DNA of 64,000 nt from Botryllus schlosseri (GCA_051294905.1 CM119372.1:15874001-15938000), one strand, 5' to 3'; counted from the stretch's first letter, positions 5,139 to 40,855 are shown. Program-made: numbers and translations. Notes: generated by a model from the sequence alone, not told the origin.

Positions 5139-5216
5139 ATCTAAACCATACCCAGCCATAACCCCAAATTTTACCCACATGCTGAAGTGTCGCATCCCAT
5201 TATGTCGCATGCTCAT

Positions 5217-10321: not shown

Positions 10322-13300
10322 ATGAGGATGCTAAACCTTGTAATGGTGTTAACTATTGTATTCTTGGGAATCGCGGTACTGCAGTCAGAAGGTAGGTGCT
10401 CTTATGTATATCATGTATCTAATATAGTGGAGCGTCATGTATTATACTTGTTTAATGAACTACTATTTGCCATCAAAGGTATTCGTGATGACAATATACG
10501 ACTCAGGTGATGTAGGATGTTTGAGATATAGTTGGACTGTGATACTATATGTTCATGGCTCATTGATCATGCTCACTAGGTGTCGGTTACCAATTATCGA
10601 CCTCTATGGTGATTTATGGGCCTGGGTAGTGGTACGGTACTTTTCGATTTTAGGAAGAAATCATAGACGATATTTTTCGCACAATACGGTACTAACTTGC
10701 GGTATATAACAGAAACGTGCGGGGATCGTTATCATACCTTTAGTTTCGCCAACGTGCTAACAATTGGAAAAGACGATTCCGAATGTTTCCTAATTATTTC
10801 TGAAGTATCTCTGTTCACATGCTAAGCTCTAATTATACAAATGTTTTGCCGACGACCTATGCAGGACGGGTGCATAGCCCGAATGTGATATGTAAGCTGT
10901 CTATGGCAAATACAGATTATACATAACGATGACACGCGATTGATCAGATTTAATAACTGACATTTATATGTATCAGGGATAGTACTAACCATTTAATATC
11001 ATTTTGCTCGTAATCCTAACTTCATTTGGTGATTCGCGTTGGCAAAACAACGGTGTTTGCAAGAGAGAAATGTAGTTCGTAATATTTTGCTGGCATCTGG
11101 TAGAATATTTCACGAGAGTCATTTCGCACTGATACTGAAAAGTTATTAGGTTATACAACTTACAAGTCAAAGCAATCTTGTATGTTATCGTTCACATTCA
11201 CATGGTACCATTTAGGCCACAGTTTTTATTCGTTTGTGTTGTGATATTCATGATGTTTTTCGACTACAATGGTCATTTACACCAGGCCGATATTCTTTAT
11301 TATGATTCCGTATCTGTCGGATTTTAGCACGGCCTACTTCTAGGCTATTTAAGACACCACTTACTCGGATAAGATGACGAGGAGCAGCCTAGATAAACCG
11401 CCAAGACCTAAATAGGAATATTGGTATCAACCTCTGTCGCACTCGAACCCGATGGTGTTGCAGCTGTGGATCATACAAATACACGCTATCTCGCCACGAC
11501 GCCACGCGGCCACTCAGTTGCCAGCGGTTCCCAACGTGGGCGGTATCGCCCCAGTGGGCGATTTCGAGAAACAAGGGGGCCAAAATACTAAAGGGGATGA
11601 CCTAAGGGGCGGTTGTGAAGCGAAAATGTTAAAACGACCTGTGAGATATATTTTACTGATTGGGTCAAGAAAAATACGTGAACACGACTTATTCTGCATA
11701 TGACACGAAAGTTGACTAAAAAATGGTCAACTCAACTCAACCGGTTTCCTGAGCATCTATACTCGGAAAATGACCTTTTTTGCCAATTCACCAGCGATCA
11801 GAGTTGGGTGAATAGATTTTCCGTATTTTCGGATCCAAAATATTGGGGTGCGAAAATTTGTGTCGAGCTGGATAAGGGGACGATGATTCGAAAAAGGTTG
11901 GGAACCACTGGTCTACACAGTGGGCTCCCAAAAGTATGATATTTTCAAATATGCATTTTTACATTTCGGATCGGTCATTTTTCGCATGTTACAATAACTC
12001 GCGACTCCATCAAGTTATTATAGGTTTTGCGTGAGTCACAGACGTATGGTGTTTGCACTTCGCAGTATGACGTCATTGGTTCGCACAATTTCATATCTAT
12101 TAGAGCGGGGAGTCGTGGGCGGTAAAGACTATAGCCACCGGTTTTCAGGCTCAAAGTCGGCTGTATTAGCTATACGCATTTATTTCTCGTATGGAACCAC
12201 CATTTTCTGGCGGGAGAAGGGAAACATATTACGCAGAGGCTACAACCAATACATTCATTTAAAAGCTCCAACTATGCTCAGCCCTCTTATTACTTACCGA
12301 GGAGTTATTTGGGCTTACCTACTAAAGCGCGATTTTGATGTTGAATATGCCGATGTGATATTTTTGATGCGCCGCAACGATACGGCACGATGTTGATGTG
12401 GTACCGTTAGTACGTATGGAATAAATTGAAGTCATCACTCACGATATATCTAAATCAGGGGTCGGCAACCTTTTGCTAGTCGCGGGCCAAATTTCGGATG
12501 TACAACCTTTTGGCGGGCCGGATTTTTTCTTAGTACTATATTTTACGCTCACTTCGGTATATTATCCTACATTGCTGCAATCTCAATCATACCAATCCGA
12601 AGACACATGTATTTACACTTCAACGACACAGAGTAATTGTGACAATTGACGCAGCTTGCTTTTTGAAAGGTTTTCAACTTCTGGTAACAAGTCAGATGAA
12701 ACAAGAATCAGACCCTATTCAAAATGGACGTCCGAAATACGTGATCTTAGCTTGCTCTTCGTGAATTTCATTGTTCAAAACTATTTGTTCACGTGCGTTC
12801 GTGCTTCCAAAAATCGATGCAATTTCTTTTGCATTACTGGTCAAGCTGGGATAAAGACCAATTTCAAGAGCGTACTCTTTGTCAAAGTCATGCAGCGATA
12901 TGCTCTTTGTATGAAATTTGTCATTCAATTCAACTGCATCGCATTTCAGAAAGGCTTATTTGAAATTCTCAGGCAATGGTATTGGCGTCCACATTAAACA
13001 GAGTACCGAATAGTCAGAATTCATTTTGTAGAGAAGGAATGTCGGAAAAGCGGGTGAATATTCAGTACGGTAGTTAAATTTCGTATCACAGTTACAAATG
13101 TAGTGTTGGTACTAGGTTTTCTATCCTCCAGTATAGGAAAGTGAGCATAACTTTCTTTGTACTGTTGACATTTCCAGAGTCACAGATTTGTTTTGAATGC
13201 GCCTCAACATCTCATGTATGTAGTTGTTTTCCCCCTGAAGTTGCAAGTTCAATTTGTTCAGATGTGACGTTAAATGTACCAGAAAAGCAAGATGAGATAC

Positions 13301-16300
13301 CCATTTTCGATTACAAGATTATGAGTCGGCGATATTTGTATTTTCGAGGAAAGTTGCTATTTAATTTCTCAGTTCATACACTCGTGTAAGCATAGCTGCT
13401 CGACTCAATGAGCGAACATGACAGATATAGGCCTACATGACATCGCCATATTGATTCTCTGCTTCTAGTAATATCTGGCGTAACTGATTCAGTTTATGGG
13501 ACAAAAATTATATTAACAGTTTTCACCATTGTGGCCAAAACACTATTCAGGTTTTTTGTCTTGGCACACAATGCCTTCTGGAAAATCAAACTATAGACAG
13601 GCTAACTAACATACGGAGGCTAGTTATCTATAATTGAATAGTTTGAGATTCCGTCATTCCGTCTGAGATGCTCCAAGCGTTTTTTGAAGCAAAGGAAGAA
13701 GACCTTTATTGTCACACCCCGTTAGAGTGATTAACCCCTTAAAAAAGTATGGAACACCTTCGGTTGCGAGATACACCCGATTGATAAGCACTGATCCAAT
13801 CTAGTCTATCTCCATCTCCTACTTCAACCACCTTCGTTTTATGGCGTAACATTAGACTAATACGATGTAGGCTACTATTATATCGTAGCAATGCCGCATT
13901 TTTTTCATGCAGCGCTGCACTGCAGATTGAAACTCATTTTGAAGCGGCGGGCCGTATTCTTGTGATAACTAATTATTATATCGCGGGCCGGACGATTTCG
14001 CTTGGCGGGCCGGATCCGGCCCGCGGGCCGTAGGTTGCCGACCCTTGATCTAAATTATCGCACTAGACATCAGATCATTTCTTTGAGTACAGTGGACAAT
14101 CGCGATGCGCAGCGTGAGTGGAGATTAGGGGTCTTACATATACTGCGGAACGTTTCCATCCGGCCTGCGAAGCAAGTTGAGTGTAACCGTTAATGATAAA
14201 CCGCTAAATAAAGTTACATATAGTGCTCAAATGTATGGTTTTACCTATCTGTGGTGGAATTGCTATACCTATCTATAGCTTTAAAAAATGTCCCCTGCCT
14301 CATATAGCTCTTTTGTCGGTTATATCCATAAAATGTCCCACTACGCATCCTTAGGGCCAACGCCGCATCATCACCTAAACCAGGGGATTTCGACAAAAGT
14401 GCCATATATACCCGAAATTTTCAATTGTAATTCCCAAAGAGCCATACATACATCGATGTTAACTATTACGTCACAATTTAACATCCGTGACCTTATTTAA
14501 GCATAAAATGAAAGGCAACTCTAGATGGGATTCGTTGTGTTCGCCATATTTTTTGTGTTGTTTAAAGGAAAGGAAAGGACGTAGTTTATTTTTGTCCTTG
14601 ATGTTTTTGCGGCATATACACCGACTCATGATATACATACAACTCCCCCGCTAATCATGCCCGTTGCGTAACATTTGAGCATCCGACACAGTGAAAAACG
14701 ACAGTTGAGCGTTTGACACTTCAGCGTAGTTACATGCTTCGGGAACCTTTTGCGAGCTTCATATTTTTAATTTTATTTCCGTTGGAAGTTTCGAGCCCCT
14801 AAAAGGCCCTATTGGTATGCCACTTTTTGACCAGACAAAGACGTTGTTTTAGCTACCACAGGCATAATAATTCTTGTCGTTATGAAAATTTACAAACAAA
14901 TTCCCTCAATGTTGATAAACAAGATGCGAACTAAGTGGAAGATTAGGAATTTATCAAAGAGCCATATTATATCATCAAAAGAGCCATAGCTTTTCGAGCA
15001 CGGACCTAAACCAATGGAGCATAAAAATTTACCAACTTCAATCGTTGTGACTCGCTCGCACCAGTCATTTGGATTATAACTGTATTGAATCTTTCACCAA
15101 TTATATATTTGTTTTCGAATGAAGATGTTGCTAGAGTCGCAGTGAGCGACATTCTTATATATTATTTATAAGCTTGATAAAGTATTCCACTGAAAACAAT
15201 AATAGTTTATGAGTAACATTTTGGCACGATTGGTCATGTTCGTAATCGGCAATCCGACCAGCGACCCAAATTGAGTTCGACAGCCTTGGCCTCGATATTG
15301 CCTATACACCGCTGGTTAAATGGAGAGAATAGCTTGTACTTGATTTCAACCACCATACATGGCTGTGTGAAATTTCATACCGATCATCGCCCATAAACGT
15401 ACCATTAAACCCGTGTTCAATTAGCTTAACTCTAAAGGAAAATTCTATGCTACATGGCCGCACTAGGGTCATATATTTGTATTTGTGACACAAAATGCAA
15501 CCTGCGTTACGATAGTGCCTTGGTATGTTTCATGGTTTATAGTCTTCAAAGCACCGAAACAAAAAGAGATTTAGGTATAAATAATAGCGAAGGACATTGT
15601 TATCATCCACTGAACGACCGTATACTGAGCAGACATGCGGTAACCGGGACTTGTAATCGCAATCGATTACGGCGATTACATCATTTTCAAGTAATCGTAA
15701 TCATATTCGATTGATTACTTTTTACGAAGTAATCATGATCGTGATCGATTATTTTGCATAATCGATTACTTTAAATACAGGGACGTTTACTGACCTCACA
15801 GTACTGTGATATAATATGAATACATAATTGTGCGAGGTATGGATAGATGTTAACGGTAGAATCGTCGGATTTGTGAACCTCGATGCTTGTTGTTACATCA
15901 CAACTTTTTGTCATGCTCTTCGATTACGCTTCGGTAAGAACCCCAGTCGGTAAGAACTAAGAATTTACTGCCATACCTGTTTTTTTTGTGACGATGACTC
16001 ACAATATTTAGATAGCTAAGTACCGTGTGTTAAGTTTCCATGCCGGAATTCGTGTTTGTTATGCCGTGTCATCCTATCCATGGTTCTACTTTAATCGGGC
16101 ACGAATTGTTATTTTTCCTTCACTGCAATCTGAACTTGCCCCAACCACCCATTTGCATCATTTTAGCATGCATGGGTCGTACATTAAACGAAAATTCATA
16201 GGGAGCAATAAATAATTATAATCAGCGACTAAGATGCGTTGTGAGTATATTATGACCTGTTGAGATATAATCGAATCGAATCATGATTTAGAAACAGTTT

Positions 16301-19017
16301 AAGAACGATGCAGCCTCGTCTCAATCGTTATCTTGTATTCGAATATGCACTCAACGATCAAGTTCAAGTAAGCAGAATAGATGTAGAGGTTTGTTTGTTT
16401 TGGGGTATTCATGGTGTTTGCCGACTACTATGGTCATTTACACCAGGCCGATATTCTTCTTATTTTTCCGTAACTGCCGACTTATAGCACGGCCCACCTC
16501 TAGGCTTTTGTAAGACACCGCTGCCGCGGATGAGGTGGCGAGGAGGAGCCTAGGTAAATAGTCGCGAATACCTTCAATGCAATCTTAATCGTAATTAACG
16601 ACTGCTAGATTTTGCGATTGATTGCATTGATGCAGTATAAAAGTCACTTGTCTGCTGCTGTGATGCGTTTACATGCAAAAATTCCGATATCGAATTAAGG
16701 ATTAAATTTTGTCACTTTAGCAAGTGGGATCTTTCAAGATTTCTTCCATATGATCACTTATTAACACATAAAGAAAGTATGTGTTCATCAAAGAACGCAA
16801 CCACAACAGCATTTGTTTCTGTTTATCGACATGTGGGAGATGGTTGAATAATATATCAAACACAGAAATGACTTCGCTTAACCGACCGCTTATTTGATTT
16901 GGTCATCATGATCATTGTCCAATGTCCATGTCCATTCGCGTTCATAAATACAATCACTGGATTGAATTAGATATTAGATACAAAGGAACATCACATATAT
17001 TATCATATATATGTCCGCTTTATTGAATATGGTATTGCTTTCACTTATCCTCGCTATACCTACCAATGTTCAGCTTGACTGACACTGGGAATATCATCGC
17101 TTTTGTTTCCATCTTCATTGCGGAACGCATTCTATCGACCATGAGCGATGCCCACCGCAACTGCATAACTCTTGCGATATGCTTCGTGCCGCTTACAACG
17201 CGATGAGTGCGCTACTTCAATACATTATAACACTACCACAATCCATTTCATGTACCGCGGATACCGAGATACTGAGCGGTTGTCCATTGAAATACGAAGG
17301 CGAAGGGAACATAACACATCACGTTGCAACCGGATTCAATTATTATTAAAGTGGTTAATTGAATTATATAGATAGACTGAAGGATATGCATTTACCGCAG
17401 TCTTGTATAGCTATATAACGTGTAGACAGATTTCGATAGTTTCGATAAGCTAACTCCAAATTATCTGCACTGTTTACGGATCATTTACACGCAGTGCCTG
17501 ATAGCAGCAGAATAACGCTGTCAGTAATGCGTTGTTAGTAAACTCGCACCGTCACTTTAGCGATACCGCACTAATAATTTTGTAATACTGGCCGACAGCG
17601 ACCAGGATAATCCCAATAAATATGTGTGCGTGTTGTTTTTACAAGCCTTTACCCGTTTACCGAGTACGCGCTACACAAGACGACTCGCACGACATATACA
17701 GCAAGGTTAGGACCTCCGCATTGAGTTAAACTTTACTTGAATCGTTTCACGAATTTGATAAATGCTGTCAAATCCCGTAACAAAACTGCAGCATTAGTCA
17801 CATCCTGCTCGTAAACACTGTCATTAATTGGCCTACTGGGTATTGCTACGGTACACTACAACGCATGTAATCCCTATTTGTATATATCCAGGAAGACTGT
17901 GTTTTCCCACTACTTATCAATTTATTATTAACAATTTCATCATTTCGTTACACCAGAAGACTGCGATACCGTGAAGAGATAGGAAGGTGTCTAAACGACT
18001 TGGAGTATTCTTTGAAATCAGACATCCACCTGCTAAAAAGTGGGTAAATCGGTAGTCAAGTCGAAAAGATGACCTTTTTTGGCATCACATCAGGCTTTCC
18101 AGTACAAATTTCAGAATCAGCAGTTTTCTAGTCCGGTTGTTGTTTGAGGTATTCATGATGTTTGTCGACTACAATGGTCGTTTGCACCTGGCTCATGTTC
18201 GTTATTTTTGATTCCGTAGCTGCCGACTTGCGGCACGGCCCACTTTTTGACTTTTGTAAAACACCGCTTACGCGGATAAGGAGCCTAGATAAATCTCCAA
18301 CACCTAAGTAAGAATTCTGGAGTTGACCTTAGTCGGACTCGAACCCACGACCAATCGGTGTTGTAGCTGTAGATTAAACCACTACGCTATCTCGCCACTT
18401 CTATTCCTGTACTCTGACTTTTGTCATTTCTAAAAAATGTCATTGTTTCCGGATTCCGAAATATGGTAACCCTAAACTTAGTGAGATTCCAATTCATACG
18501 GAGAATATTATATTTTATAGCACCGCATCAATCCGTATCATCCTTGAACATCCTTGAAAAGTTTGGTGACCGATTGAACTCAAGTTTTCGTGAAATTTTG
18601 TTCTGAAAACGTGACGACGTGACGATGTAATGTTAATTCTAATACCATTTATTTAAGAACTGATCAAATTGTAGTCAACGAAAAATCCAATGCCCACAAT
18701 ATTTTCCTATACTATGTACTGTAGGCTACGATGGGAGTACGTGCACGCGGGTTAGTAACAGTATTGCGTACCCTAACCGCTATTCGATCTGTAACTTCAA
18801 AAATCCCCGTACTGATATTATTGTGGTGTGATTTGACTCCAGTTATTTAATGGATCATCGTACATACAATAATACAGTTTTCCATCTTATTTTCTGCAGG
18901 TCGGGCACGATCAAGATACGCCCTGTTGACGCGGATTTGTCCGCCATATTGCAAGACAACATCTCATCTGCATCATTGCCATCAGAAATTCATGGGGAGG
19001 AGATCTCGGAAATGTAG
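10322..19017 (+). CDS. Gene A: multi-exon orphan secreted protein precursor (signal peptide, basic core, acidic C-terminal tail); middle exons uncertain
   Basis: Exon 10266-10391 (ttcag acceptor, ATG at 10322) encodes signal-like MRMLNLVMVLTIVFLGIAVLQSE and ends G|gtaggt (phase 1). Candidate exons: 10865-10891 (GRVHSPNVI, |gtaagc, phase 1-1); 14093 to ~14175/14182 (LDNRDAQREWRLGVLHILRNVSIRPAKQ, donor ambiguous); 15543-15574 (SSKHRNKKRF, phase 0-2); 17957-18043 (RLRYREEIGRCLNDLEYSLKSDIHLLKSG, only open frame, phase 2-2); terminal 18900-19017 after a strong tttctgcag acceptor (SGTIKIRPVDADLSAILQDNISSASLPSEIHGEEISEM*). Confidence 0.6.
11229..11511 (-). mobile_element. tRNA-derived SINE, copy 1
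   Basis: Minus-strand head GGCCGCGTGGCGTCGTGG (A-box-like) and GGGTTCGAGT (B-box); colinear with copies 2 and 3. Confidence 0.8.
11522..11910. mobile_element. hAT-type MITE (CAGYGGTTCCCAA ends)
   Basis: TIR CAGCGGTTCCCAAC...GTTGGGAACCACTG; no TSD recovered. Confidence 0.6.
12456..14047 (-). mobile_element. Deleted hAT (Buster/SPIN-like) transposon with transposase C-terminal remnant
   Basis: TIR CAGGGGTCGGCAACCT; perfect TSD ATCTAAAT. Minus strand ~12640-12930 reads IASIFGSTNAREQ, then after a frameshift MKFTKSKLRSRISDVH...LLPEVENLSKSKLRQLS, typical of the hAT dimerisation region. Confidence 0.85.
16389..16558 (-). mobile_element. tRNA-derived SINE, 5'-truncated copy 2
   Basis: Matches the 3' part of copy 1; (CAAA)n tail, seen as GTTTGTTTGTTT on the plus strand. 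Confidence 0.8.
18136..18398 (-). mobile_element. tRNA-derived SINE, copy 3
   Basis: Colinear with copy 1; B-box GGGTTCGAGTCC on the minus strand at about 18335-18346. Confidence 0.8.
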
Positions 19018-19330
19018 GACCAATATCCACTTTAACCAAGTTGTCGGAGTAGATCATCTTGGTCTTAAGCAATTGCCCCTACTCCCCATTCATACATGTC
19101 GTTGAATATTCAAATTGAATAGGTTCATTGTCATTACATTTTGACGCTGATTTGCCATGAATAGATGTTTGCGTGGAGACACAACACCGTGTATGTGAAT
19201 CAGATCACGCAAGTAGGCGTACAAATCAGTAAACAAAATTGGTTCTCGGAATCAGTCTTTCGACGCAAAGGACACTGGGAATGACGGCACACATATTCAT
19301 ATCTGATAGGCCTAGATTTATTATCTAGGG

Positions 19331-21663
19331 CAGTGGTTCTTAACCTTGCTCCCAGCGCCCCCCAGGGGGCGCTGGCGATTTTGAAGGGGGGCGGAAACGC
19401 TCAGGGGGCGATATGAGGGGCGCTGGGCTCAGGGGGGCGGTATGGGGGGCGCTGGAGAAAAATGGCTTCGCAGTAGATGATGTGGTGATAGGACATATCC
19501 TTAATGAGTATTCAGAGCAAATTAACACCGAAAACTTCGTTATATATAGCCTTAAAAGTACATATAGGTTTAATTGTCCATGGGCGCCTAAATGACTTGC
19601 ACCGAATGTTCCTGTCTTGGCAATCTGAACCCCAGAACACGAATTCCATCTGGCGGGGAAAAATTATATGCCAGTGGAGAAATACCAATTTGAAATCGTG
19701 TGTGTCTCTTAGTTTAGTACGATTGGGCGACAGGGATATTCCTGTTGGGCGATATCCCTGTTGGGCGATTCTATATTTTTTGATATTGCAGACAGGAGGT
19801 CACGAAATAGCATCATGCAACGAAGTCATATTAACGGGTTCGCCCGCCCGAATATGTTATATTAGGCTTACCATATTTTGGAAATCAAAAAAGAGGACAC
19901 TTTTTCAGAAATTTGCAACTTGCAAAACCGGAGTAAAATTCGCGAAAACCGGTTAATATTTCCAACTTTGTGATCGGTTGACTAAAAAAAAAAAAAAAAA
20001 AAAGGTCATCTTATCTGCTCTCAGAGCTCAAATTACCGTTTTTCTCTCCACATTGCCAGGTGGTTGACTAAAAAAAAATCGTCTTTTCGCTCAGCGCTCA
20101 AATCACCGTTTTTCACTCCGAAATACCAGCCGGAGCGTCACTTCTGTGCTAATTTACGGCATATAACTCGCAATTTGCTCTAAATCTTACCTAAAATTTC
20201 AAAAAAGAGGGCAAAATCTCAAAAAAGAGGACAAAAGGGCGTCCTACGAGGACACTTTCAAAAAAGTCAAAAAAGAGGACAAGAGGACGTATGGTATGCC
20301 TATGTTATATTAACTAATATATTATTAGTTACGGGCCCTACAGTTTCCAAGACACCTCACAATGTTCGCTTCGAGTTTTGATGAGTCTGCGCACACTCAA
20401 CAACTCACTGCGCTGACCCTTGGACAACAGTGCGTAACGACTAAAAAAATGTCATAACTTCGGATTTGTTGTTAGCAACGTAGATTTTCTGTGCGCAGAG
20501 ACGGTGTCAGCACTGCGCACGTGCGCAGCTTTGAGGGAACATTGCATCTCACTCAGCTCTACCGGTGAATCTGGTAACGTGAGCAGAGAGGACAAGAAAT
20601 TGATAGCAATATATTTGCAATCCCCGGTCTTACTGACCGATCTTAGCATGAATTATCGAAAGTTTTTGCGCTTCGCACTGGCTCGCTAAACAGTACAACT
20701 GATTCCGTGGCAAAAGCGAACAACGCGATGGGGGCGGTCGGTTTATCACCTTATGGGAGCCCAAGACCCAAGTTTTTCCGGGGGCCCGACGAAGTGACGT
20801 TTCGTTTCTGCCAACGGGTATACGCCCGAAGATGTATAATTATTACTGAGGGGTCCTACCATTTCAAAAACACATCACTCAGCTCTACCGGTAAATCTGT
20901 TTACGTGAGCAGAGAGAGGATAAAAATTGATCTCAATATTCATGCAATTCCCGATCATATTGACCAATTTCAATCATTAATTAGTGAAATTTTCCGCGCT
21001 TCGCGCGTCTAGGCGAGAGTAGCTGGCTCAGTAAATGGACAGTTGGACACCCAATGTAGATACCTAGTATCAGCAAATAGCGGACAGCCGAATGGGGGTC
21101 TGGGGGTGAAGTCCCCCGGAAGTTTGGTTTATCACCCGATGGGGGCCCAGGGCCAACGTTTTTTGTTTGGGGGGGGGGCTGACGAAGTGCTGTTACGGCC
21201 CTGGTAACGAATAATTTTTCCTACGGGCACGCCCGAATATGTTTAATTATTACTTACGGGCCCTTTATTTTCCTATACAACAGCTCACTCAGCGCTACTG
21301 GTAAATCTGATTACGTGGGCTGAGAGGATAAAAAGTTTATAGCGACATATATATATGAATTACCACCTATTCATTCATGCATTATAGAAGATTTTGGTAC
21401 CTAGGGCTAGCAGGCCACACAAACTTTGCTGACCATCGAAATCACGCTATGGGGTTCGTGGGGGCGAAGCCCTCAGAAGTTTGGTTTATCACGCTATTGG
21501 TTCGCAAGGCAATCGTTTATAGGGGGGGTCGACGAAGTGCTGTTACGGACCTCCCTCTTACTCATTGTCTTCATTACATTCCTCACAATATGAAGTTGGG
21601 GGGCGCTGGAGCACGATAATTTTTGAAAGGGGGCGCTGGACGAAAAAAGGTTAAGAACCACTG
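19331..21663 (+). mobile_element. hAT MITE family D, copy 1 (GC-rich ends, composite interior)
   Basis: TIR CAGTGGTTCTTAACCTT; perfect TSD ATCTAGGG; highly similar to 56803-58361. Confidence 0.92.
19863..20302 (+). mobile_element. MITE family E (TAGGCTTACCATAT ends, GAGGAC repeats) nested in D copy 1
   Basis: Perfect TSD TGTTATAT; absent from D copy 2; second copy at 32577-32967. Confidence 0.85.
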
Positions 21664-22039
21664 ATCTAGGGCATTCAGAGGTTAAATATGAAAAATCCGC
21701 AACGAAAAGGCATAATGTAGTAATTTGTTAATAGATGCAAATGGCTTTCGGGATTTACACCCTTTCCAATATCTACTTCGGTACCAACCACGAAGAAAGG
21801 AATCGATTTGATAAAATATTAATGAAATGTGATCCGGTACGAAAAACTCCGATAATAATCATCTACCTACAGGGTGGTACTGAATATTGATTGAAACAAT
21901 GCAAACAGGAAATTAAAAACTAAATGATCGAACCCAACTCTCATCTGAAGTAATCATGTCAACTGAGACTTGGCATGTTGTTTGTTTCCATAAACGTTTC
22001 GCTTTAACTGTTGATTCGAGGGTCGAAGAGAGTAAGGCT

Positions 22040-23619: not shown

Positions 23620-23706
23620 GTAAGGCTGTCATATTCTTAGTAAATGTCCTGATTCGGTTCCGATCCGTCTCCGACCGTATCAGAAAAAACACTGATCTGG
23701 CTTTGA

Positions 23707-23708
<2 letters not shown>

Positions 23709-23743
<35 letters not shown>

Positions 23744-28658: not shown

Positions 28659-30573
28659 ATAATTGTATACAATGGCAGCCGAGGCCAGCATAGCGGTAAA
28701 AATAAAAAACTTCGCCCGCAAGGGCGCAGTCAAGGGCTTCCTCGAATGGATCCACCAAATTCCTTGTCGACATTTAAAGAGAATGCATTATAAGTCAATT
28801 ATTTTATGTTGTGCTTGTCAGGTCTCAATAGCAATTTAATGTAATTGAAATTGTAATTGAGCAAAATTTTTGTCAAATTACAATTACAATTACAATTACA
28901 ATTACACAAAATAAAAATGCTTCAATTAGAATTACATTACAATTACATTGAAATATGTAATCAATTACATTCAATTACATTACAAATTACAATTGATCCA
29001 ACTCTGCTTCAAACGTTATTTTAAAGTGTGATCTACGATTAGTAAACTGGTTCAAAGGCTACCGAGTCGCATATCGTTGTGTTCACACGTACAATGCATC
29101 ACTTATTGACAACGAGTGTTAGGAAAACGTTACAGGTTGTAAGATGAATAATATTCCGATTGCATCGTTCACTCTTTGCACTGCACTCTATAAGATTTTG
29201 ACATGTCGTCAAGTTGATTTGCATTTGTTCGCAGGACTTCACAAATACCACATATAATTGCAGGCCAGTGTTTCCTAACTTGTGTCCATGGATTTATTTG
29301 AGTCGGACAACGGCGTTATGTGAGAGCGCGAGCTTATCAATTTATCTCACTTATCACATTTACATGCTTCATAAGCCGTGACTTCTGCCGGACTATCATT
29401 TAATATAGATTTCCTCACGTGGGATTGTTAGTGTCGTAGTAGTGTAGTAAGAACTTCTTACTAAGAAGGCAGTGGCGTAACCAACTTTCTACGTGTCAAC
29501 AGAAATAGCTATTGATAAAAAGGTCCGCATATGCCGTATTGGAACCTACGCGTAACACAACTGGTTACCAACACCAACTTGTGGAAATCTGTGACTCCCA
29601 TGACCAGTTATAGCAACGTCAACTGGCAAATGGACAACACCCATATGGCAAGGTTCCACCTGTTGCAAATAAAAACAATTGTAAGAATTACATAGTTTTA
29701 CTCATTCATCTACGTTGCTATCGTTTGACTCTCATTAGCATAGAACCGGGCCGGCCAGAACTGTTCCATGCTTAAGCCGTATGTCTCAAAACTTATAGTT
29801 ATAAAAGAGCCGTAACTCAAAAATGCAGATAGACTTACTCACGATGAAATGTAGGCTCTCAAATAATGATTATACTGTTTTGTGGTAATACTGCTGAGTA
29901 TAAACCTGGGCTACAAGGAGTTTGAGGTTACACCTAGCCTATATGACGTCAAATTCTTGCGGAGCGGCTTCCACGAGTGTTAGTAAAACTTTCGAACGAT
30001 GCCATGACTTAAAAATTATTGCGGCTTCAGTTGTTGTGGTGGATTCCTTGCTGAAAGTTGTATTGCTGCATGAAGGGCATTTGGGGAAGATTTAAACTCA
30101 TTAAGTCTATTCCTCCACTTAAGTAGGGGATTGTTGGGAATGTGTCTTGTTAAGCATCGAAATAAAATTGCCTTTCAGGTCATGATGTAACTATTAAACG
30201 AAGCTTAACATGCGAGGCATGCTGGTTTACCTGTATTATCAGTGAATGCAGAGTGCACAGCACAATCTTTGTCCACGCTGTTTTGAAAGCTGTATTTACC
30301 TGTTCATACTTAGCCTACCTCCCAATTATTTCTCAACAACAATTTCTTGACTAAACCACGCAGCAATTGCTAGTATTGTCCCACAATACAAATGTACGGG
30401 TCCTCTGCCCATTATCCACCAAGAGTTTGACGGAACATACGCTTCCTTTAATATAGGCCTACCTATTATTTAGTTCAGTGGTTCCCAAAGTGGGCGATCG
30501 GGGAAAAATGTACGAAAGTTCAGCCAATTTCATCCTAGTAACAGTTTAATTTCGTGCCAAGTTTAATTTATAA

Positions 30574-31414
30574 CACTGGACCAACAAAGAAAAAACTTTT
30601 TTGAATGCCAACGATATTTTATTGGCTTCTAGGTATGTTCGGGCTGCTGAGTCCGAAAATGACATGCGTTTCTCTGAATTGGATCTGAGTTTTGAGATAT
30701 TGATATTATTTATATATTTATTCAATAATTATTTTATTTAATCGTCGTGAGAAAAATACTTCGAATTACGCAGATTTAGAATCTTCTCGGCGATCTGTGC
30801 CTCACTTTGAGAGCATACTAACTGAACTTTGAGCGTTACTGAACGTACTGTTTGGGCTTTGACGGCACCTGTTATTGATTTACAGAAATATGTTGTTTAT
30901 GCTATAGTATCGCCTAATTTTTAAAATTTTTGCTTGATTTTCACATAAAACTGGACTCGCGTATGGAGGGTTCTCTGTGTTAACGATTGCGTCTTCAACG
31001 ATATCGCTTCAGAAATAGAACAATACTGTATGCACACACTTGAAGAGACAAATGTGAACTCATCGAAGTTGCAGCATATAAAGTGATACAAAATTTGCGT
31101 ATTTTGAGCACTTTTCCAAACAAAAATGTGGAATATCTCAAAGAGTCTATTCGCAAAAACTAATGTCATTGTCAGATTCCGCGACATAAGAATGCCCTAA
31201 AACCGAAGTATACAAAGATCCGTATAATATACAAAGAGCATTTACCTATGTCAGAATTTGCGTATTTTTAGTACTTTTCCAACCAAAAATATGGAATATT
31301 TTCAAAAAAATCGACACAAATCAAAAAAACTAATGCCATTTTTGGATTCAGCGACCTAAAAATATCTTAAAACCGTTGAAACCTTCTTGGCCTCAAAATG
31401 CGTGTTTACCAGTG
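30574..31414. mobile_element. Chapaev3-like (CMC) non-autonomous element
   Basis: CACTGG...CCAGTG ends with 3-bp TAA TSD; internal duplicated block near the right end. Confidence 0.7.
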
Positions 31415-31579
31415 TAATTGATGGATGTTACTGAGATAGCGTCACAATACATGGCTGATCAAAGTCCGCGATAGTTGAAAAGGATCAAATCGAGGAAGTT
31501 CGCTCCCGATTGCACCAATTGAATTGACTTATGAATTCTCTCAACTTCGTAGCCACTCGTTAAAGAGGATACAAAGATG

Positions 31580-31875
31580 TCCGATCAATACCGAGAAAAC
31601 CAATACCGAGAATGCCATTACTGAGAATGAACACCACAGAGAATGGACATTGCCGAGAATGGACACCACCGAGAATGGACATTACCGAGAATGTAATGTA
31701 TGCAATGCAGGCATGTTATGCATATGTACAGGTCGTGCGTATGTGTATCACGGCGTTGCCAATTCTGTGTCGATTCTAAGATATAAATTTCTCGATAACG
31801 TCCGCCCGAGTGAGTTAGATTCTCGGCATTGGCTATTCTCGGAAAGGACCATTCTGGGTAATGTCCATGCACGGT
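31580..31875. repeat. Small element with inverted arrays of CCGAGAAT(GGAC) units
   Basis: About 7 direct copies at ~31590-31692 and inverted ATTCTCGG copies at ~31820-31865; no TSD found. Confidence 0.65.
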
Positions 31876-32435
31876 AAAGAACCAGATCACATGGCGAGGG
31901 AAGCTTACACTCTCAGCGAAAAGAGTGCATATTCACACCCGTGTACCACTCAAGATATACGGGTGTGAATACACACCCGTGGTACACGATACAAAGACCT
32001 ACATCAGATTTACACCAGAGTATAAACAACACACAATATTTGAATAAAAATGAAGTTAAGAAGGTACGGAGGTAGGCAGGAGGATTTATAACCGCGATAT
32101 ATATTTCTGAGTTATGTTCGGTTTTCGTGTACCACATTTTCGGTGTGAATACCCCTCCATTCGCTAATAGTTTCGACTTTCACACTTCACTGAAGTATTG
32201 TGTGGTTTGGAGTATTTCATCGAGTATAAAATTGGGATGTCGGGATATTTCTTCTTTGCTTTATTTCGACTCACCCCGTGACATTTTGATGACGTTTCAG
32301 CACAAAATTGCATCGGAACATTTAAGTCCAACGCGCAATAGTTTGTCCAGGGATATATAGAACTCTATATATTCTATATATCCCTGAGTTCGTCAATCAG
32401 ATGTGGCCAGTCGGCTGAAAAGGTTGGTCACCCTG

Positions 32436-33490
32436 CTGGTCCAGGCCAAACCGGGCAATGTATTCGGAGTCTGACTATTGTTACATTGATATTGAGCGGA
32501 GTGTGAAACGGGTTTCTATAGTTTCTATACTTCTAATGACTATACTCTATTACCCCATTAACAAGTTATACAGTAGTAGAGTTACCATATTTTGGAAATT
32601 TGAAAAGAGGACACTTTTTAGACTTACAATACCGGAGTAAAATCTGGAAAAATTGGTAAATTTATTCCGAGTTTGTAGTTGGTTGACTAAAAAAATGGTC
32701 ATCTTTCCGACTCGACTACCGAAATACGAAACAAAACAAAATATAGGTCGTCTTTCTGGCTCAATACCCGAAAGATCCGCCGTACGGTTACTTGAATACT
32801 GATTTCCTGTATCTCAGTTGAATTTTCACATATATTAAACCAAGATTTTCAAAAAAAGAGAACAAATTCTCAGAAAAGTGAACATTTGGGCGTCCTCCGA
32901 TGACACTTTCAAAAAAGTCAAAAAAGACGACAAATCCTCTTAAAAGAGGACATATATGGTAAACCTATACATTGGCCAACACCCCAATGGCACGGATTTG
33001 GTTTTCAAGATACGAAAGACATATCAAATCAAGATGGAACCCGCTATATATATCTTTTACATTAGACAACGATGTATTCTTTATATACATTTCATTGATT
33101 GGTTGAATAAGCATCATTCACTTACTCCCTACATGTAGGCTAGTGTATTTCGCTCTTGATGTTGTGTGATTGCGGGTCACAGCAGAGAGTCACTAACTGG
33201 ATGTTTCGAGCTAACTTTTGTAACAAAACAAGTAAAATTTTTAAGATATAGGAAAGGTGCATAACCGTTTACAGTGTTGATTTTTTTATGCTGCCAGCGC
33301 CATGCATAGAATGGCCCGAAGTTGAGATGCCTACAATTTCAACCAAAGATGTTATTATGACGTGAAAAATTGTGATATATGAAAAAGGTTCACAGTGCAG
33401 AACCTACCAAAGTTCGTTTGAGAACGTGAAGCCCTAAGTTTCTGGGGTTCACACACAGAAGTCGAACATTAAGTTCAGGTTCACACCATT
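32436..33490 (+). mobile_element. Family B 3' portion with nested family E copy (32577-32967)
   Basis: Colinear with 22860-23500; E insertion flanked by degraded TSD TACAGTAG/TACATTGG. Confidence 0.75.
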
Positions 33491-34392
33491 CTTATAGTAA
33501 ATATGGCCCTTTCGACGAAAAGGGCTACAGCCCACTGTCATAAACAGACCAATAATATCTTTAACCAGGACTACATCGTTATGCAGCATTTTGACTATTA
33601 GCGTTCATAATCATCAGAGCACAATACTTACTATAACTGTGGCATCGACGACGATTGCGAGGGTTCCAGCCACTCCACATGGTATACGTCAACTATATAT
33701 TGGGTGCAAATCGTTCATAGGCTCATACTACATTTTTCGAAAGTATTTGCACTATTATGGCCTAATTATACAGCGTTAAAAAAAGCTGTGTTTGTTTTAA
33801 ATGCAGCCCTAGGACCTAGGTGCGTGATAGTCACGTGTTATTCAGTGTGGTCTGTTGCATTCAATGATACTATAGTTTGTAACATGTTACGTGGTATGGT
33901 ATGACATGGTATGGAATCGGAAATTTCCATGCTCCAAACCGGACTCGATCGTTCCAAACCATGCTCACAATTTTCCATACCATAGCAACATTCTTCCATA
34001 CCATATTTGATACGTTTTTCATACTTTCGCAGTTGCCATAACCTCTCAGATATTATTATATCTCTGATGTGTGGAAATATTTCGGCGGCTATATTCTACT
34101 TACTTAGGATGAAATTATTATTTATTTAAACAGCCCTGATGCACCAATTCTATACCAATTTCTTTGTCTCATATGTCACCGTCGTAGGCTGCCTCAGTGC
34201 CTCATCATCGAAGGCGGAACGTAAATTATACGCGAGATTATTTGGGAATCACAACAGAGGTTCATGACATGTAACACTATGTGTGGTTACGCACTGCTAA
34301 CAGCAATGTGGAGATATCATCTATAAAAAATTACATAAAACTAACTCAACTCCTGGGGGTATCTCTATACACAGGCCGCCTTTCCTCTACTG

Positions 34393-35119
34393 CAGTGGTT
34401 CCCAAACCGTGGTGACTGACAGTCTCTCAAGTGGTAATCGAGACGATTCGGCGGTTCGAGAAATACTGGGCACTATAAGCTGTCGAACTAAAATAGGCCA
34501 ACGTCATATGTCCCATATTCTATGACTCTTCCATTGATCAGGCTGCGATTTTATAAGTCACCACGCGTTACTTTTGTGTCGATCAGTTACTATTAAATTC
34601 AGATTCCACTTGAGATCAATATATAAACCTTATTCTTATCACGGAATTGTGCACATGTATAGCCGAGTGTTATGCATCAAAACCGTAACCGGGTGGCGCG
34701 TTACAAAGCGATAGGAGGGTTGCAATTCGAAATTTCGAATGTCCATAAATCATATATTACGACCGATCGCAGAATATTCTAGACTCAATTCCACAAAACG
34801 TAGCAGATGATTGCTGGTTTGGATAAGGGTATATCGCTTACTCTAACTATAGCAGAACGTATTTCCTATATGCGAAATATCAGGCTGTACGGACGTCTCC
34901 GATCCTTATTCACTGAATTCGTCTTTCGTTTTTGATAAACCACGTATGGAGGAAACTGACGACTTTTATGCTGTAGTATTGCAGAATGCAGTATCTATAC
35001 CACGGGAAGAAGAGTTACAATCAATTGTTGTCGAGTTTGAAACGCTATTATGCTTAGATACAGTTTAGTTGGTTCACAAACGCTGTATAAAACGAGTAGA
35101 AAATGTTTGGGAAGCACTA
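34393..35119. mobile_element. hAT MITE
   Basis: CAGTGGTTCCCAAAC...GTTTGGGAAGCACTA; TSD CTCTACTG/CTCTACGG. Confidence 0.75.
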
Positions 35120-35374
35120 CTCTACGGGCGATTTCATCACTACCAACTACCAACTATAGATATGATTAACGAACACACACATTATTTCCCTAACGAAGTT
35201 AAGTCCATCATTATGCGAGTCATAAACGAGACACAATAAGTAACATCGAACAAAAGAGTTATATTTTCAGTTCCATCGGCTTACTACTTTTGGTTTATGG
35301 TCGCGGTAAGTCGCCTTCGAACGGCAACTGAGGATTTCCACAAAAGGTACCACCCACTCATCGACACACTATGG

Positions 35375-36090
35375 CAGGGCTGGCCAACCTTTTTGGCCAA
35401 AGGGCCACATTCGATTTACGAACTTCTGCGCGGGCCACTATCCGCGCGAAGCGCGAAAAATTTTTGAATTTCATAGATCAATAATGTTGTCATTTGATTA
35501 TATTGCGGGCCTGCTGTATATCGCTCGGCTAAGTTTGCGAGGACTGGGATATTCGGCGCATGCACATATCGATAGCAAAAGCTGCGACCAAGATGGGTCA
35601 AGCATTTCGTGCCTAGGTTTCAAAGTCTACGGTCTTACCGCGAGCGCAAACGCAAGGTGAACGACACTTTGTCTCGTAATCGCGAATATAGTTAGACTCA
35701 ATCTGATACATTAGGTGTTCTTCCATTTTCACAAAATGGCAACAATATTAAAAACAAGCAATCGAGTGACAACATATTGCGCTAAGCTTGTAGAAATTTT
35801 TTACCTTTGATACATCTATCGCAAATTATTCTGCTTTATTGTAGTGTAAGAAGATATATACCAATATGTGAATGGCCAATGGATCTGTCAATGCGTCGGA
35901 ACTGATATTTTAGCCATAACATCTCAAGTGTTGCGGCCAGACTAATCAAATTTTTGGTTGGCCTTACAAGTTCAAAATCTGTGCAATCCATTTTTGATGA
36001 TATTAGAAATTTCGGAAATTACCTCGCGGGCCACTCAAAACCTTCTCGCGGGCCACATGTGGCCCGCGGGCCACGGGTTGGCCGGCCCTG
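35375..36090. mobile_element. hAT MITE upstream of gene C
   Basis: TIR CAGGGCTGGCCAACC; perfect TSD CACTATGG. Confidence 0.88.
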
Positions 36091-36487
36091 CACTATGGTA
36101 TCGAGGTCATGGATTTTGACGGAATTTCTGACAAGCATTTTACTATAGTTTACTGTAGAAGGAGGTCGTATATAATCTAAAAATAGTACAAACATCTGGT
36201 TTTGATGTCGGTGACGTCATATTCGGAGATACGATCGTTGATATACAATGTGGGCCTAATTATCAATTCTTTCGTATATGTTGACGATTACCCCTGTCCA
36301 GTGACAGCCGAAACTATTCACCTTTACTAAAATATGAATATATTATTCTCATATATATCGAACTTCTGTACCATCAAGAGTGCATTCTCTGACAAAATAT
36401 TGTACTGCAATTTCCAAATCGGAAATATTGCCCGCAAATGTGTTACGAGCATCAAGTTTATGAGAAACCTATAAGTTTTGTCCGTGA

Positions 36488-36497
36488 TATATATAAA
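36488..36497 (+). promoter_or_regulatory. Candidate TATA box of gene C
   Basis: TATATATAAA about 360 bp upstream of ATG 36860; same 10-mer as upstream of gene A. Confidence 0.25.
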
Positions 36498-36859
36498 TGG
36501 GGAAGGCTTGTGCTGGGATTTATGCAGCCACATGCATGAACGCCAAACTACAAATACATAGAATTGCAAATTTAGGAACAGTAATAGTTGATCGAAGCAA
36601 TTTCGTGAAACTGTATATGAAAATTCAAGTATGTGCGGATACGCCTTTTTAATTCTGCAGCGATATATTTATCGGTGGTTATTTAAATATAACATGCCAA
36701 TATAGCCAATCATATTAGTTATGGTACAACGACGGCAACAGCACTTTCCGAAGATCTCGCATGAGGATTTAGTGCCTTCTCCAAATACCTGTCAACGAGT
36801 TTCAAAAGACGAATAATGAAATCTAGACATACATATAAGCCGTAATTGATTTTATTTCA

Positions 36860-39800
36860 ATGGATTTCGCAAAAAGCAGATATCGAAAGATAAGTACAAA
36901 AGTCGAGTCAATATTGATTTTAAAAATCCCAACTTATATCTTTATGACTCTAGTAATAAGTATCAGAGGTATGTAAGGTGACAGCCGCTAACCGTTTGTT
37001 TATCTCCGATTATACGATTTACAAATAATGGGATCATCACTCACACAAAATAATATACTTGCGAAATATGTGGTCAGCTTTGCTTTACCGTGATCTGGAT
37101 GTGGTTACTTTTTGGTTTGTCTAGTATTTGTGTTAAAATAATCGCATATAACCTGAGTTGAAAAAGGAACAATATCAGGGGAATGATTCTCCGTCGCTAG
37201 AATTTTTTCTCCAGCCATTGTCCATTATGAACGATGTAGGCCAGTATATATACATATATATTTATATTTCATATCGGCACATATGTTCATCGCATCGCAT
37301 AAAAAGGTCGGTTTCCCTTTCGTTCTTAGCTATAATTCCTTCACCAAATCGTAGTTGAAATTTCGATAGATGTAACATAAAGACCATAACTGAAGTGTAA
37401 CACCATAGACCAGGGGTCCCATGCACGCAACCCGCGGGCCGCATTCGGTCCGCGAGATCATTTTGTGCGGCCCACGTCGCCATTTTGGATTTCGAAGTAT
37501 TCGACAATATTTAACCGCCGCATATCTGTTTTTTTTTATATTGAAGAGCTTAACATTCGCTTTAAAACTATTAAAAAACTTGAAACTCCTCATCAGACTT
37601 CGCTATCATATCACTTTCAAAAGTTACTACGCGATGGAAGATCAGCGATCACGTCACATTATCTGTTCATGATGATAGAGCAATGACCCGTTGATAAATT
37701 CGTGACTGAAAATTGTGATTTGTACTTGGGACGTTTTGCGACGTTTTGCAGAATTACTCGAGCTCGAACTCGAAATGAATGGGTGATAAAATAAGAATGA
37801 CTCTAGTTGAGTCCTGTCAAACGTTACAATTGGAGAAGGACTTATGACCCGATCGCCGTGACTTGGTACAGCCACGCACTCAACAAACTATCACACTGTT
37901 ATCGGAAATAGTAATGTATCAAAAGGCCGTAGCTTAAGTGGCGTAGCGTATTTAGCTGTCTCAGCAGGTCGGTATGACAACCATTTGCATTTTGTCATCC
38001 CCTTGCTGTGTAGTTACTTATTTCCTGTATAATCTTAGGTCTCTTTATCCATGTGATTATCGCCTATTAAAGGTGGCGAGTAAAGTAGTGGTAGCCTACG
38101 CTCCATTTAGCTGTAACAGCAATAGATACTACGACGATCGGACATTTATATTGCTATGGCATATTATTCAGTATATTCAAGTTGTTGCTGTTGATCTGTT
38201 CCAATATTCGAAGGTAAATCTAACGCTGATTTAATTTGACTTTGGTAATGATATGGTCAATTACCTATAGTTATCAGGAGAATGCCCGTAACCCGGATTA
38301 GGCTGTATAATACTGCTCCAATGCTTTGATATCACGTCACACTTTGTTAATTTTTTAAATAATCCATAGCTATAAATGTGCACTTCAAATTTCCGCTGTA
38401 GCTGTCAAATTATAACGCGACAGCTTTTACGGTGTCACGATTCATTTGTACAGTCGCGTGGTGTCTGTAACTACTTATTTTGACAGAACAATGCCAAGTA
38501 ATCTACAACAACAATTTTTTTCAAATGTTTAAAAATATTATTTTTTCGTGCCAGGCGTGAATTCACAATAGTAAATCGTATTTTCCTAATTTGTGCCGAA
38601 TGTCAGTCTACAAGGTCCCGTCAAATAAGCCATACTTGGAAATATATTGAATCCCCAATCATTGGTGCTGCGGTTCGCGGCGCCATCAAAAACTAGGAAA
38701 TTGGCCCGCGAGCATATATGAGTTTGAAAACCCTGCCATAGACTACTGAGCAGTGGTTCTCAACCTTTTTGTCTTCGCGGACCCCCTCAAGTTTTAGTTC
38801 AAATTTAGCTCAATTATCGTGCAACCGTCATCTATCTTTTGCAAATATAAATTGAAGGCTAGTGTTAAACAGCAACGAGATGACCATTAGTGAAAATATT
38901 ATTATACTATATTTAGAAATATGGGTGGACTTTTATTATTTCGAAAAAGATTCTGCAGCTGAATTTCTTATTTCTTGAAATATGTGGTCCTGTCTTGAAA
39001 ATTCACGCGTTCGATTCGAAATGAACGAGAGCTGAAAATCTATTTTCACAGAAGTGGGTGGCGGCGAATGTATAATATTAACGCTTGACGCTTCCGACCA
39101 CACCTTTGAGCACGGCCGCAACAAATATGGCGCCAAAATTGGAAAACAGATTTTTCAATGAAGTTATCACTTCCAGACTAGGCATTTTTATATAGCAGCT
39201 CATCTTCAAAATTTTCTGGAATAGTTGTTATGTATATCACAGGAGAAAATAGAATCCGTGATGAGGTTTTAATCGCTTTTTTTAGACTGACTAGAAAAAA
39301 AACTGTTTTAACAAACCTCAACAAAACATTTTTAAACATCAATATGTTTGTGTCAGTAGACTATTGGCAATTTGGCAATTTAAATGATTTTACACACTGA
39401 GATTTTTAATCTCATACGGCCATTCTGTTGATGTGCTTGCTTACAAATTAATTCTCGGTCATTTTGAATAATTTAGAGGTTTCGCTGGCCCTCTGAAAAT
39501 GCTTCGCAGTCCGCCAGGGGTCCGCGGACCCCCGGTTGAGAACCACTGCTATAGAGTTTCCTCGTTCCGTCATATAGAGCGAGGTGTCACAGTGACGTAA
39601 TGGGTTCGGTTTTTAAAAGCGCTCGCTGTCACGCCGGGTATGTAGTATTGTTGCTAACAGCCCGAAATCCTGTCTTCAATACGGATTCCCAAAGCATATT
39701 GTTGTTTCTCTTATTAACCGGGTTTACAGCTGCCCTGATACCAACAGATCACATGTCCGTATTCTACTATGCCGTTGACGTTGTTACCGAAATTCTCGGA

Positions 39801-40558
39801 GATCTAAAAAACATAACTACGGCGATAGGTAACTATGTACGTCGAGGTTTAGAATGATTGACGCCGTTTTATTGCCTAAAATCGATAGTACGCTATTATT
39901 GTTAAGCAAAAGTGAGAAATATATACGTATAACGTGAGCAGACATTGGTTTTCAATCTGGACTAGTCTGACCAATATTTTTCGTAATATACGTATGCAAG
40001 TGTGCACTGTGCATACATCGTGGAAATAATTTGTGATTCGTGAACAGGGCGCTCACGAGGAATTCTCACATATTGATTTGACAGCATTCCTTTTTATACC
40101 TGTAGATTCTGCACAAAAATCGAATGAAAGTGTCGAATTACAGCTGTAAAACGTAGTATTGTGATGTGCTTAACGAGTCATATCTGTCTACCGATTACTA
40201 CTCAAATCTTTTGTATTGAATGATAAGTGTAAAAGCTAGCCTCTGGAAGCATTTTCAGTCAGTAACACAATACAACCAATGACATGACTTTCGCACAATT
40301 TGAAGATGTTATCACGTCAACCAGATAGTAGTTACAAGGTATAGCGAGATCTCCACAGAGGATAGGCTCAAAGAATTATTTATATATATACAATTATACG
40401 TATTATACTGCATTCATTAATGCTGGCGCTGTGTAGTTCCGCTATATGACTCCATCGTAGTCGAAAGATGTCACGACAAAGTATTGAAGAGTGACTTCGA
40501 ATGCTTGTTCCAACAGAACAAAGAGCAGCATACGCGGCAAACTGTGAAAGAATACTGA
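36860..40558 (+). CDS. Gene C: four-exon orphan secreted/N-anchored protein, probable distant paralogue of gene A
   Basis: Exon 36860-36968 MDFAKSRYRKISTKVESILILKIPTYIFMTLVISIR, G|gtatgt (phase 1). Microexon 37215-37235 (ttttctccag|AIVHYER|gtaggc). Exon 39730-39828 (99 nt, only open frame phase 1-1, ALIPTDHMSVFYYAVDVVTEILGDLKNITTAI|gtaact). Terminal exon from 40437 or 40461, both in frame: (PLYDSIVV)ERCHDKVLKSDFECLFQQNKEQHTRQTVKEY*, TGA at 40556-40558. AATAAA near 40788. Confidence 0.55.
37411..38735 (+). mobile_element. hAT MITE family A, copy 3 (in an intron of gene C)
   Basis: Perfect TSD CCATAGAC; lacks the ~280-bp internal insertion seen in copy 2 (4307-4590). Confidence 0.85.
38751..39548. 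mobile_element. hAT MITE
   Basis: TIR CAGTGGTTCTCAACC; degraded TSD CTACTGAG/CTATAGAG. Confidence 0.75.
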
Positions 40559-40855
40559 ATTGTATTACAGCAATCGCCATAAACAGTATGCAGTAGCCTA
40601 CGAACAACCTAGAATACTGTCAATCTAGTTATCATTTAGTTCAGCGGTTCCCAACCAGAAGTGACTGCTCCCAACTTCAAGTATCACATCAATGGATGGC
40701 CGTCAGAGCTAAACTATCGTACTCTGCAAACTCATTTCAATTTTTAATAAGCCATTCAGCCAACGGAATGATGCATAGGCCTATTGAAATAAACATTCTG
40801 CGATATAAAGATGAATTGTTGGAAGTTGAGGAAAAGTTAAAGAGATGAAATAGAT

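Follow-up and report, generated by a model that had tools for sequence, protein, structure and literature searches.

We found that a 64,000-nucleotide (nt) stretch of eukaryotic DNA from Botryllus schlosseri (hereafter the window; ~39% GC, with internal repeats making up at least 16.7 kb) very likely holds two inverted paralogous genes that face each other, A on the plus strand (10322-24542) and D on the minus strand (42299-40471), as judged from the predicted exons collected in Table 1. Both would encode small, secreted, cationic peptides built on six cysteines, and we put at roughly 0.7 the probability that this inverted pair is a better-supported feature than the one proposed in a first-pass annotation, which had read gene A and a plus-strand gene C (36860-40558) as diverged copies within one family of secreted helical ligands. 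That A–C family, as described, very probably does not exist. Removing it leaves a better-supported A–D pair at nearly the same coordinates.

Shared cysteine-rich core of the predicted genes A and D

The predicted products of A and D have in common the pattern C-x3/4-YC-x8-C-x11/12-C-RV-C-x4/5-FC together with RRxRK, and 22 of the 57 columns of this core are identical (39%). For all six pairings of A and D models the local alignment score was 70-76 (z 7.6-9.0), a level reached by none of 5000 shuffles; with D's cysteines held fixed during shuffling, none of 20,000 attained it. For a search-aware null, ordered pairs of exons on one strand were ranked by their resemblance to the two cysteine exons of D. 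The pair starting at 18900 and 24454 came first, scoring 56 against 25.6 ± 6.0 in shuffled windows (maximum 46; 0 of 250 reached the score). The A–D similarity thus exceeds both the shuffles and the search-aware null.

The same two exons stood out when each was sought separately. In phase 1, D's last exon opens with C-RV-C and runs on to FC-W-N; in six frames of the window, such an exon start occurs only there and at plus-strand 24454, and the latter was the top anchored match to D's last exon among 3265 YAG sites, being equalled in 0 of 200 shuffled windows at the protein level and 3 of 300 at the DNA level. Among 432 candidates, the 18900 exon was the best match to the 108-nt exon of D. Codon mismatches between A and D numbered 25, 18 and 30 at positions 1, 2 and 3, and 8 of the 19 identical residues of the two cysteine exons use different codons, a count biased by the protein-made alignment. 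A two-sequence hidden Markov model of A and D scanned over the window recovered only its four training exons (next E value 0.032), the counting of paralogues being limited to these 64 kb.

Both models begin with a signal exon. Signal-peptide calls combined the hydropathy of ATG exons with the donor score, in place of a dedicated signal-peptide predictor, and splice scores and percentiles came from a generic weight matrix untrained on the B. schlosseri genome; by these measures the signal exons of A and D are the only ATG exons on either strand with a hydropathy of at least 2.9 and a donor score of at least 4. All introns of the two models are in phase 1. D's signal exon, at 97 nt, equals the combined length of A's first two coding exons, and A's 27-nt microexon has Pro-Asn in common with D's candidate microexon. 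For A we considered variants with 14093-14113, with 14093-14182 (A3) or with neither; taken as a 21-nt microexon, A3 gives A exactly six mature cysteines and drops an amphipathic segment bearing a glycosylation sequon. The 18900 exon is read in a frame other than that of the first-pass model. Apart from the boundary of D's terminal exon, all splice junctions of A and D are predictions. A two-exon model of D was dropped after the 108-nt exon was found.

Table 1 Predicted and proposed features of the window
Feature	Position	Strand	Remarks
Gene A candidate TATA box	8797-8806	+	sequence only; requires an intron in the 5' untranslated region (UTR), acceptor at 10230
Gene A signal exon, ATG, phase-1 donor	10322-10391	+	hydropathy 2.98; donor 99.9th percentile
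Gene A 27-nt microexon, phase 1-1	10865-10891	+	acceptor 96th, donor 95th percentile
Gene A, A3, uncertain	14093-14182	+	inner donor at 14114 would give a 21-nt microexon
Gene A 114-nt cysteine exon, phase 1-1, closing RRxRK	18900-19013	+	acceptor 100th percentile
Gene A terminal coding exon, C-RV-C...FC-x-N, stop TAA	24454-24542	+	matches D last exon
Gene D signal exon, ATG, 97 nt	42203-42299	-	hydropathy 3.10; phase-1 donor GTAAGA, score 4.8; predicted
Gene D candidate 18-nt microexon, uncertain	41872-41889	-	acceptor 3.1, donor 0.9; leaves a 50-nt intron
Gene D 108-nt cysteine exon, phase 1-1, closing RRxRK	41714-41821	-	donor GTAAGA; putative paralogue of 18900-19013; predicted
Gene D terminal exon	39867-40541	-	coding 40541-40471, then 3' UTR with AATAAA at 39873-39868; contig-supported
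First-pass A1	ATG 10322, donor 10392	+	as proposed
First-pass A2, 27-nt microexon	10865-10891	+	as proposed
First-pass A3, 90-nt stretch	14093-14182	+	as proposed
First-pass A4, RC..LKSD stretch	17957-18043	+	as proposed
First-pass C1	36860-36968	+	exon without support
First-pass C2, 21 nt	37215-37235	+	exon without support
First-pass C3, 99 nt	39730-39828	+	exon without support
First-pass C4, last stretch	40437-40558	+	as proposed
Solo copy of the 3' tail of a long interspersed nuclear element (LINE)	17925-18031	-	antisense is the first-pass RC..LKSD exon of A
5'-truncated LINE: C-terminal reverse transcriptase open reading frame (ORF) and 3' tail	59826-61096	+	reference for the tail copy

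Terminal exon of gene D in assembled contigs

Twenty-four sequencing runs matched, and four were aligned to 29000-41300: X1, X2 and X4 as contigs and X7 as raw reads (~6 in 100 of them read). A small share of the window was found in 4 of the 24 runs, none of those 4 being recorded as RNA. The aligned stretch spans gene C and the terminal exon of D; gene A and D's upstream exons lie outside it. Repeats within it were deeply covered at 85-99% identity, which suggests that the runs stem from B. schlosseri or a close species.

Over unique DNA, contigs from three studies aligned continuously at 93-95% identity (39867-40541, 40166-40541 and 39921-40541), passing through most of the supposed third intron of C. 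Those of X1, X2 and X4 share an end point, 40541, beyond which 243, 273 and 260 of their letters, respectively, go unmatched. The next letters on the plus strand are CT, not GT, and on the minus strand they form the AG of a pyrimidine-rich acceptor; at the other end, the X1 contig stops at 39867, adjoining the minus-strand AATAAA. What these contigs outline, 39867-40541, is the last exon of D, a minus-strand gene; C4, the last exon proposed for C, is mostly the antisense of this exon. The 243-273 unmatched letters exceed the upstream coding exons predicted for D (205 or 223 letters).

It is highly improbable that C is nevertheless a real plus-strand gene, antisense to D, expressed elsewhere and unrelated to A. 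Such a gene would have a 116-codon open model, donors at the 99.8th (C1) and 98th (C3) percentiles, a TATA-like box at 36488 and AATAAA at 40788, but chains of this kind are easily assembled from the 510 microexon and 230 ~90-nt candidates of the window, and the acceptor of C4 stands only at the 66th percentile. Both genes had also been credited with a signal exon followed by a microexon; those of A look real, whereas C1 fails the signal-exon scan, having no classical signal stretch. In four runs, D being present in three of them, neither C1 nor C3 showed depth of its own: bins 36398-37219, covering C1 and the first bases of C2, had depth 0 in all four, although a contig depth of 0 cannot prove the absence of a transcript, and the C3 bin had depths of 6.41, 2.30 and 3.26 against 6.66, 2.40 and 3.40 predicted from the contigs of D's UTR alone.

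Also in the aligned stretch, low contig depth was seen over 34343-35164, DNA unrepeated in the window (X1 4.0 and 9.6; X2 0 and 2.6). Near it lie TATATAAA at 34620 and a 40-codon ORF at ~34940-35065, possibly marking another small transcript; this ORF was rejected as a paralogue of C (E value 2.8).

Points against two intact paralogous genes

Several observations weigh against A and D as an intact, expressed pair. Transcript-like support is limited to D's terminal exon and its 5' boundary; the joint to D's upstream exons is outside view, because these exons lie beyond 41300, where the aligned stretch ends. X1, X2 and X4 come from three different studies and their RNA nature is only guessed, while the raw reads of X7 gave a depth of ~1 on mixed strands. 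In D's last exon and UTR the contigs differ from the window by 5-7% and, being only 93-95% alike to it, may stem from another allele or a close copy elsewhere. At the level of single exons, an unanchored search of all six frames gave the terminal exons no significance (39 was reached by 11 of 30 shuffled maxima), and the 18900 exon alone was borderline, with 14 shuffled windows in 300 scoring at least as high. Mature cysteines number seven in D and, depending on the model, six or seven in A. The signal-exon halves of A and D are not significantly similar (z 1.5), and the A model needs introns of 8.0 and 5.4 kb.

The last two points bear on an alternative in which D is the working gene and the exons at 18900 and 24454 are a decayed or separately initiated copy, not spliced to A's first two exons. 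The A introns are not only long but filled with repeats, the donor at 19014 is weak (score 0.3), and within ~1 kb of A's stop there is no AATAAA, the only poly(A)-type hexamer there being ATTAAA at 24954. Yet phase 1 is open through both exons, which between them keep all six cysteines; the acceptor at 18900 ranks at the 100th percentile, A's first two exons match D's signal exon in length, and from 10400 to 24454 the plus strand offers, repeats aside, a single alternative ATG exon (at 15883), which is weakly hydrophobic. We regard a decayed copy as unlikely and retain A and D as two paralogous genes.

Over 39867-40541, the 5-7% contig difference may reflect either strong polymorphism among alleles or another close copy of D at a different place. 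As to the repeats, a composite terminal-inverted-repeat element has two copies in the window (19325-21663 and 56797-58361; 87-94% identity), and since one of them sits in A's last intron, fairly recent intron growth is suggested. Copies of a repeat resembling a short interspersed nuclear element (74-82%) lie in A introns at 11229-11497, 16390-16558 and 18140-18398, with tRNA-like boxes on the minus strand by eye; the third copy is ~110 nt from the LINE-tail copy described below.

The proposed A–C pairing

Direct look-up showed that the motifs quoted for A and C are all present where they had been placed, and the exon sizes and phase-1 boundaries of the two models are indeed similar. Their sequences, however, are no more alike than chance would have them. 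In the alignment with shuffling that the first-pass annotation had itself set as the refuting check, the A–C score fell within the shuffled distribution: the full models reached a local score of 23 against a shuffle mean of 25.7, and 3836 of 5000 shuffles reached 23. The z value was 0.12 for the global alignment, 0.33 for exons 2 and 3 and 1.03 for the RC..LKSD exons; seven similarity tests ranged from -0.6 to 1.0. Re-modelled A gave z 0.7 against C, and D gave 0.0.

The small motifs were also counted. VH is found in 4 of the 510 phase 1-1 microexon candidates of the window (mean of shuffled windows 7.4), a sequon in 55 of the 230 open candidates of 87-102 nt, and two or more LKSD occurrences in 91 of 200 shuffled windows. 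The shared upstream TATATATAAA does occur at 8797 and 36488, and its five copies in the window exceed the dinucleotide-shuffle mean of 0.54, but there are also 16 (TA)4 starts in the window, and one of the five copies falls within the 3' UTR of gene D. The amphipathic segment with its sequon, taken to be the common core, gives way to the cysteine-rich core shared by A and D. Of the old tandem duplication of a secreted protein, a duplication involving A survives, with D as the probable partner and an inverted, tail-to-tail arrangement.

The A exons themselves are in conflict: A3 reaches the RC..LKSD frame solely via a phase-2 donor at the 26th percentile, while its phase-1 donor leads to a stop at once or after 7 residues. 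Nor do the RC..LKSD blocks stand as homologous coding exons. Self-BLAST of the window showed that 17925-18031 is an inverted copy of 60989-61096 (78% over 108 nt), with an alignment score of 94, whereas 1000 shuffles peaked at 26. The reference copy lies downstream of a 348-residue ORF that matches Pfam RVT_1 (E value 7.7e-14), and ends in AATAAA; we take the element to be a non-LTR (long terminal repeat) retrotransposon, putatively of L2/CR1 type. Read in antisense and in the frame of A4, the tail of this LINE itself yields GRC...SD, and the RC..LKSD block of A is thus a retrotransposon tail read backwards. C4, the antisense of D's terminal exon, resembles neither the LINE tail nor A4 at the DNA level; for A4 and C4, 845 of 1000 shuffles reached the score. 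The LINE-tail copy may conceivably have been exonised in A, yet it would then not be homologous to C4.

The A–C pairing is an artefact, produced in A by a LINE tail and in C by a terminal exon, each read in antisense. The view of the two as diverged members of one secreted helical ligand family, with A3 and the RC..LKSD exon counted as parts of A, has next to no chance of being correct. For tool-free reading of sequence the case is a caution, as both kinds of antisense stretch can mimic coding exons.

Other features of the window

On the minus strand at 23740-24326, just upstream of A's terminal exon, lies another LINE 3' fragment; it is more diverged, its tail is of a different kind, and it contains a long hairpin and ends in (GA)15. 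At 54541-54612 (plus strand) and 6041-5975 (minus strand), two more ATG exons combine a hydrophobic stretch with a fair donor. A near-perfect 615-nt palindrome at 5214-5828 (96% identical to its own reverse complement) is probably a foldback or miniature inverted-repeat transposable element, and tandem arrays with 52-nt and 106-nt units occupy 51686-52302.

Predicted products and homology searches

The predicted precursors have 91-106 residues, or 129 if the full A3 is used, that of D having 91-97. From residue 25 onwards, their isoelectric points are 10.2 and 10.3 and their net charges +14 and +12, with a cysteine spacing of 3-8-12-2-5 in A and 4-8-11-2-0-3 in D. Folded alone, the cysteine exon of D was modelled as two helices (mean predicted local distance difference test score, pLDDT, 73), so 'helical', the term once applied to the A–C family, may hold for part of the A–D core; the terminal-exon model was unusable (pLDDT 52).

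Secretion, formation of three disulfides and cleavage at basic sites are expected from standard knowledge of secretory precursors. The A and D precursors would thus enter the secretory pathway and lose a signal of ~24 residues, the six shared cysteines would form three disulfides bracing a small, strongly cationic core (net +12 to +14), at least part of it helical, and the conserved RRxR might be cut by a furin-type convertase. The peptide could then act as a secreted innate-defence agent on anionic microbial surfaces. Given the genes, we tentatively rank such a host-defence role, of a turgencin-like kind, first; the grounds are how small and charged the products are, their bracing by cysteines, the speed of their divergence and the analogy to turgencins and botryllin (see below). 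If the models hold, A and D represent an unassigned six-cysteine cationic scaffold that is open to synthesis and direct assay.

Homologues were sought with single exons of 22-37 residues or two-row alignments of such exons, and negatives from the libraries are weak because the queries were this short. No homologue was found for the C4 frame among proteins of 71-2000 residues, nor for D's last-exon frame among proteins of 24-79 residues, a range that excludes the 91-97-residue product; the cysteine-exon alignment gave one candidate among proteins of 19-118 residues and none at E values up to 10. A profile search of 1.84 billion representatives returned one match, a 246-residue tandem-repeat ORF from one contig, which was rejected. 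A metagenome scan produced 198 pattern matches, none confirmed. With single-exon queries the ESM Atlas gave no usable match, Pfam only weak ones apart from RVT_1, and Rfam none; PDB sequences gave one hemocyanin stretch at an E value of 0.13 and otherwise nothing. Single-exon models had no Foldseek match and a best VIA Z of 3.8, and a complex prediction for A's two cysteine-exon peptides was uninformative (score 0.02). In the literature searched, we did not find the A/D cysteine pattern described, though supplementary tunicate peptide or transcriptome tables could list the genes.

Comparison with known systems

One of the nearest likenesses is to turgencins A and B, antimicrobial peptides of the ascidian Synoicum turgens, whose partial sequence in PMC7024374 gives a cysteine spacing of 3-4-8-2-3. 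Like the A and D products they are cationic, have six cysteines and a helix-loop-helix tendency, and carry C-x2-C in the second half. Compared by eye, the products of A and D differ from them in spacing, lack the CXMAC and KKXGG motifs and the C-terminal amidation signal, and have a longer core, with an adjacent cysteine pair in D. The cysteines of turgencins are connected C1-C6, C2-C5 and C3-C4. Since PMC7024374 describes the genes of turgencin-type cysteine-rich antimicrobial peptides as uncharacterised, gene-level examples would be useful. The styelin-like botryllin is likewise an ascidian pre-propeptide with a signal and a cationic product (158-residue precursor, 23-residue signal, 37-residue mature peptide, net +11; PMC9966394); the main text of that source does not mention cysteine, while six cysteines in common form the basis of A and D. 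St-CRPs are neutral peptides of 18-19 residues (PMC13208793). Vanabins share with A and D an ascidian origin, Lys/Arg richness, disulfide bracing and closely spaced cysteines, but have 16-18 conserved cysteines by the account in PMC9486056 against 6-7 in A and D, which matched no solved chain by profile search.

The same two genes might instead encode a paracrine or hormonal ligand, RRxRK cleavage yielding two disulfide-linked chains or a freed C-terminal cysteine peptide that acts on a receptor. We rank this possible, if doubtful, role second on the strength of two conserved features, RRxRK and aromatic residues that follow the last cysteine: with a core identity of 39%, both copies retain RRxRK, and likewise FC-[FW]-N and S-x-F. 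RRxRK may, however, be just part of an Arg/Lys-rich surface, and D has a second RxxR between cysteines 2 and 3. The comparison that suggests itself is with the insulin/relaxin superfamily, described in PMC551602 as having six invariant cysteines on the B and A chains. A and D resemble it in their signal peptide, six cysteines and a basic cleavage site between two cysteine-bearing halves; no C-peptide is present in them, and single-exon queries found no insulin/relaxin profile in Pfam. The CC-x3-C of D's last exon resembles the start of the insulin A chain. By the spacing we assume for insulin, though, the cysteines of A and D are split 3+3 about the basic site rather than 2+4, both copies have Phe at the place of the last A-chain cysteine, and the B- and A-chain spacing differs.

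ALKAL/augmentor ligands of ALK and LTK, with four cysteines in the C-terminal domain as outlined in PMC10605310 against six or seven in A and D, offer a lead by description only. They too are secreted, with a variable N-terminus and a cationic, disulfide-bearing C-terminal domain. Their x8 then x12 cysteine spacing, as we take it to be, resembles that of cysteines 2-3-4 of A. A fold comparison with a 35-residue half-domain model gave as its best match an unrelated chain (Z 3.8, root-mean-square deviation 3.6, 35 residues aligned). It is very unlikely that A and D embody an undescribed chordate peptide-hormone architecture, in which a signal-plus-microexon precursor with 3+3 cysteine exons would be cut at RRxRK into a two-chain, disulfide-linked cationic ligand of an orphan tunicate receptor, possibly as a deeply diverged relative of insulin/relaxin or the ALK ligands; a hormone role, if true, would matter more.

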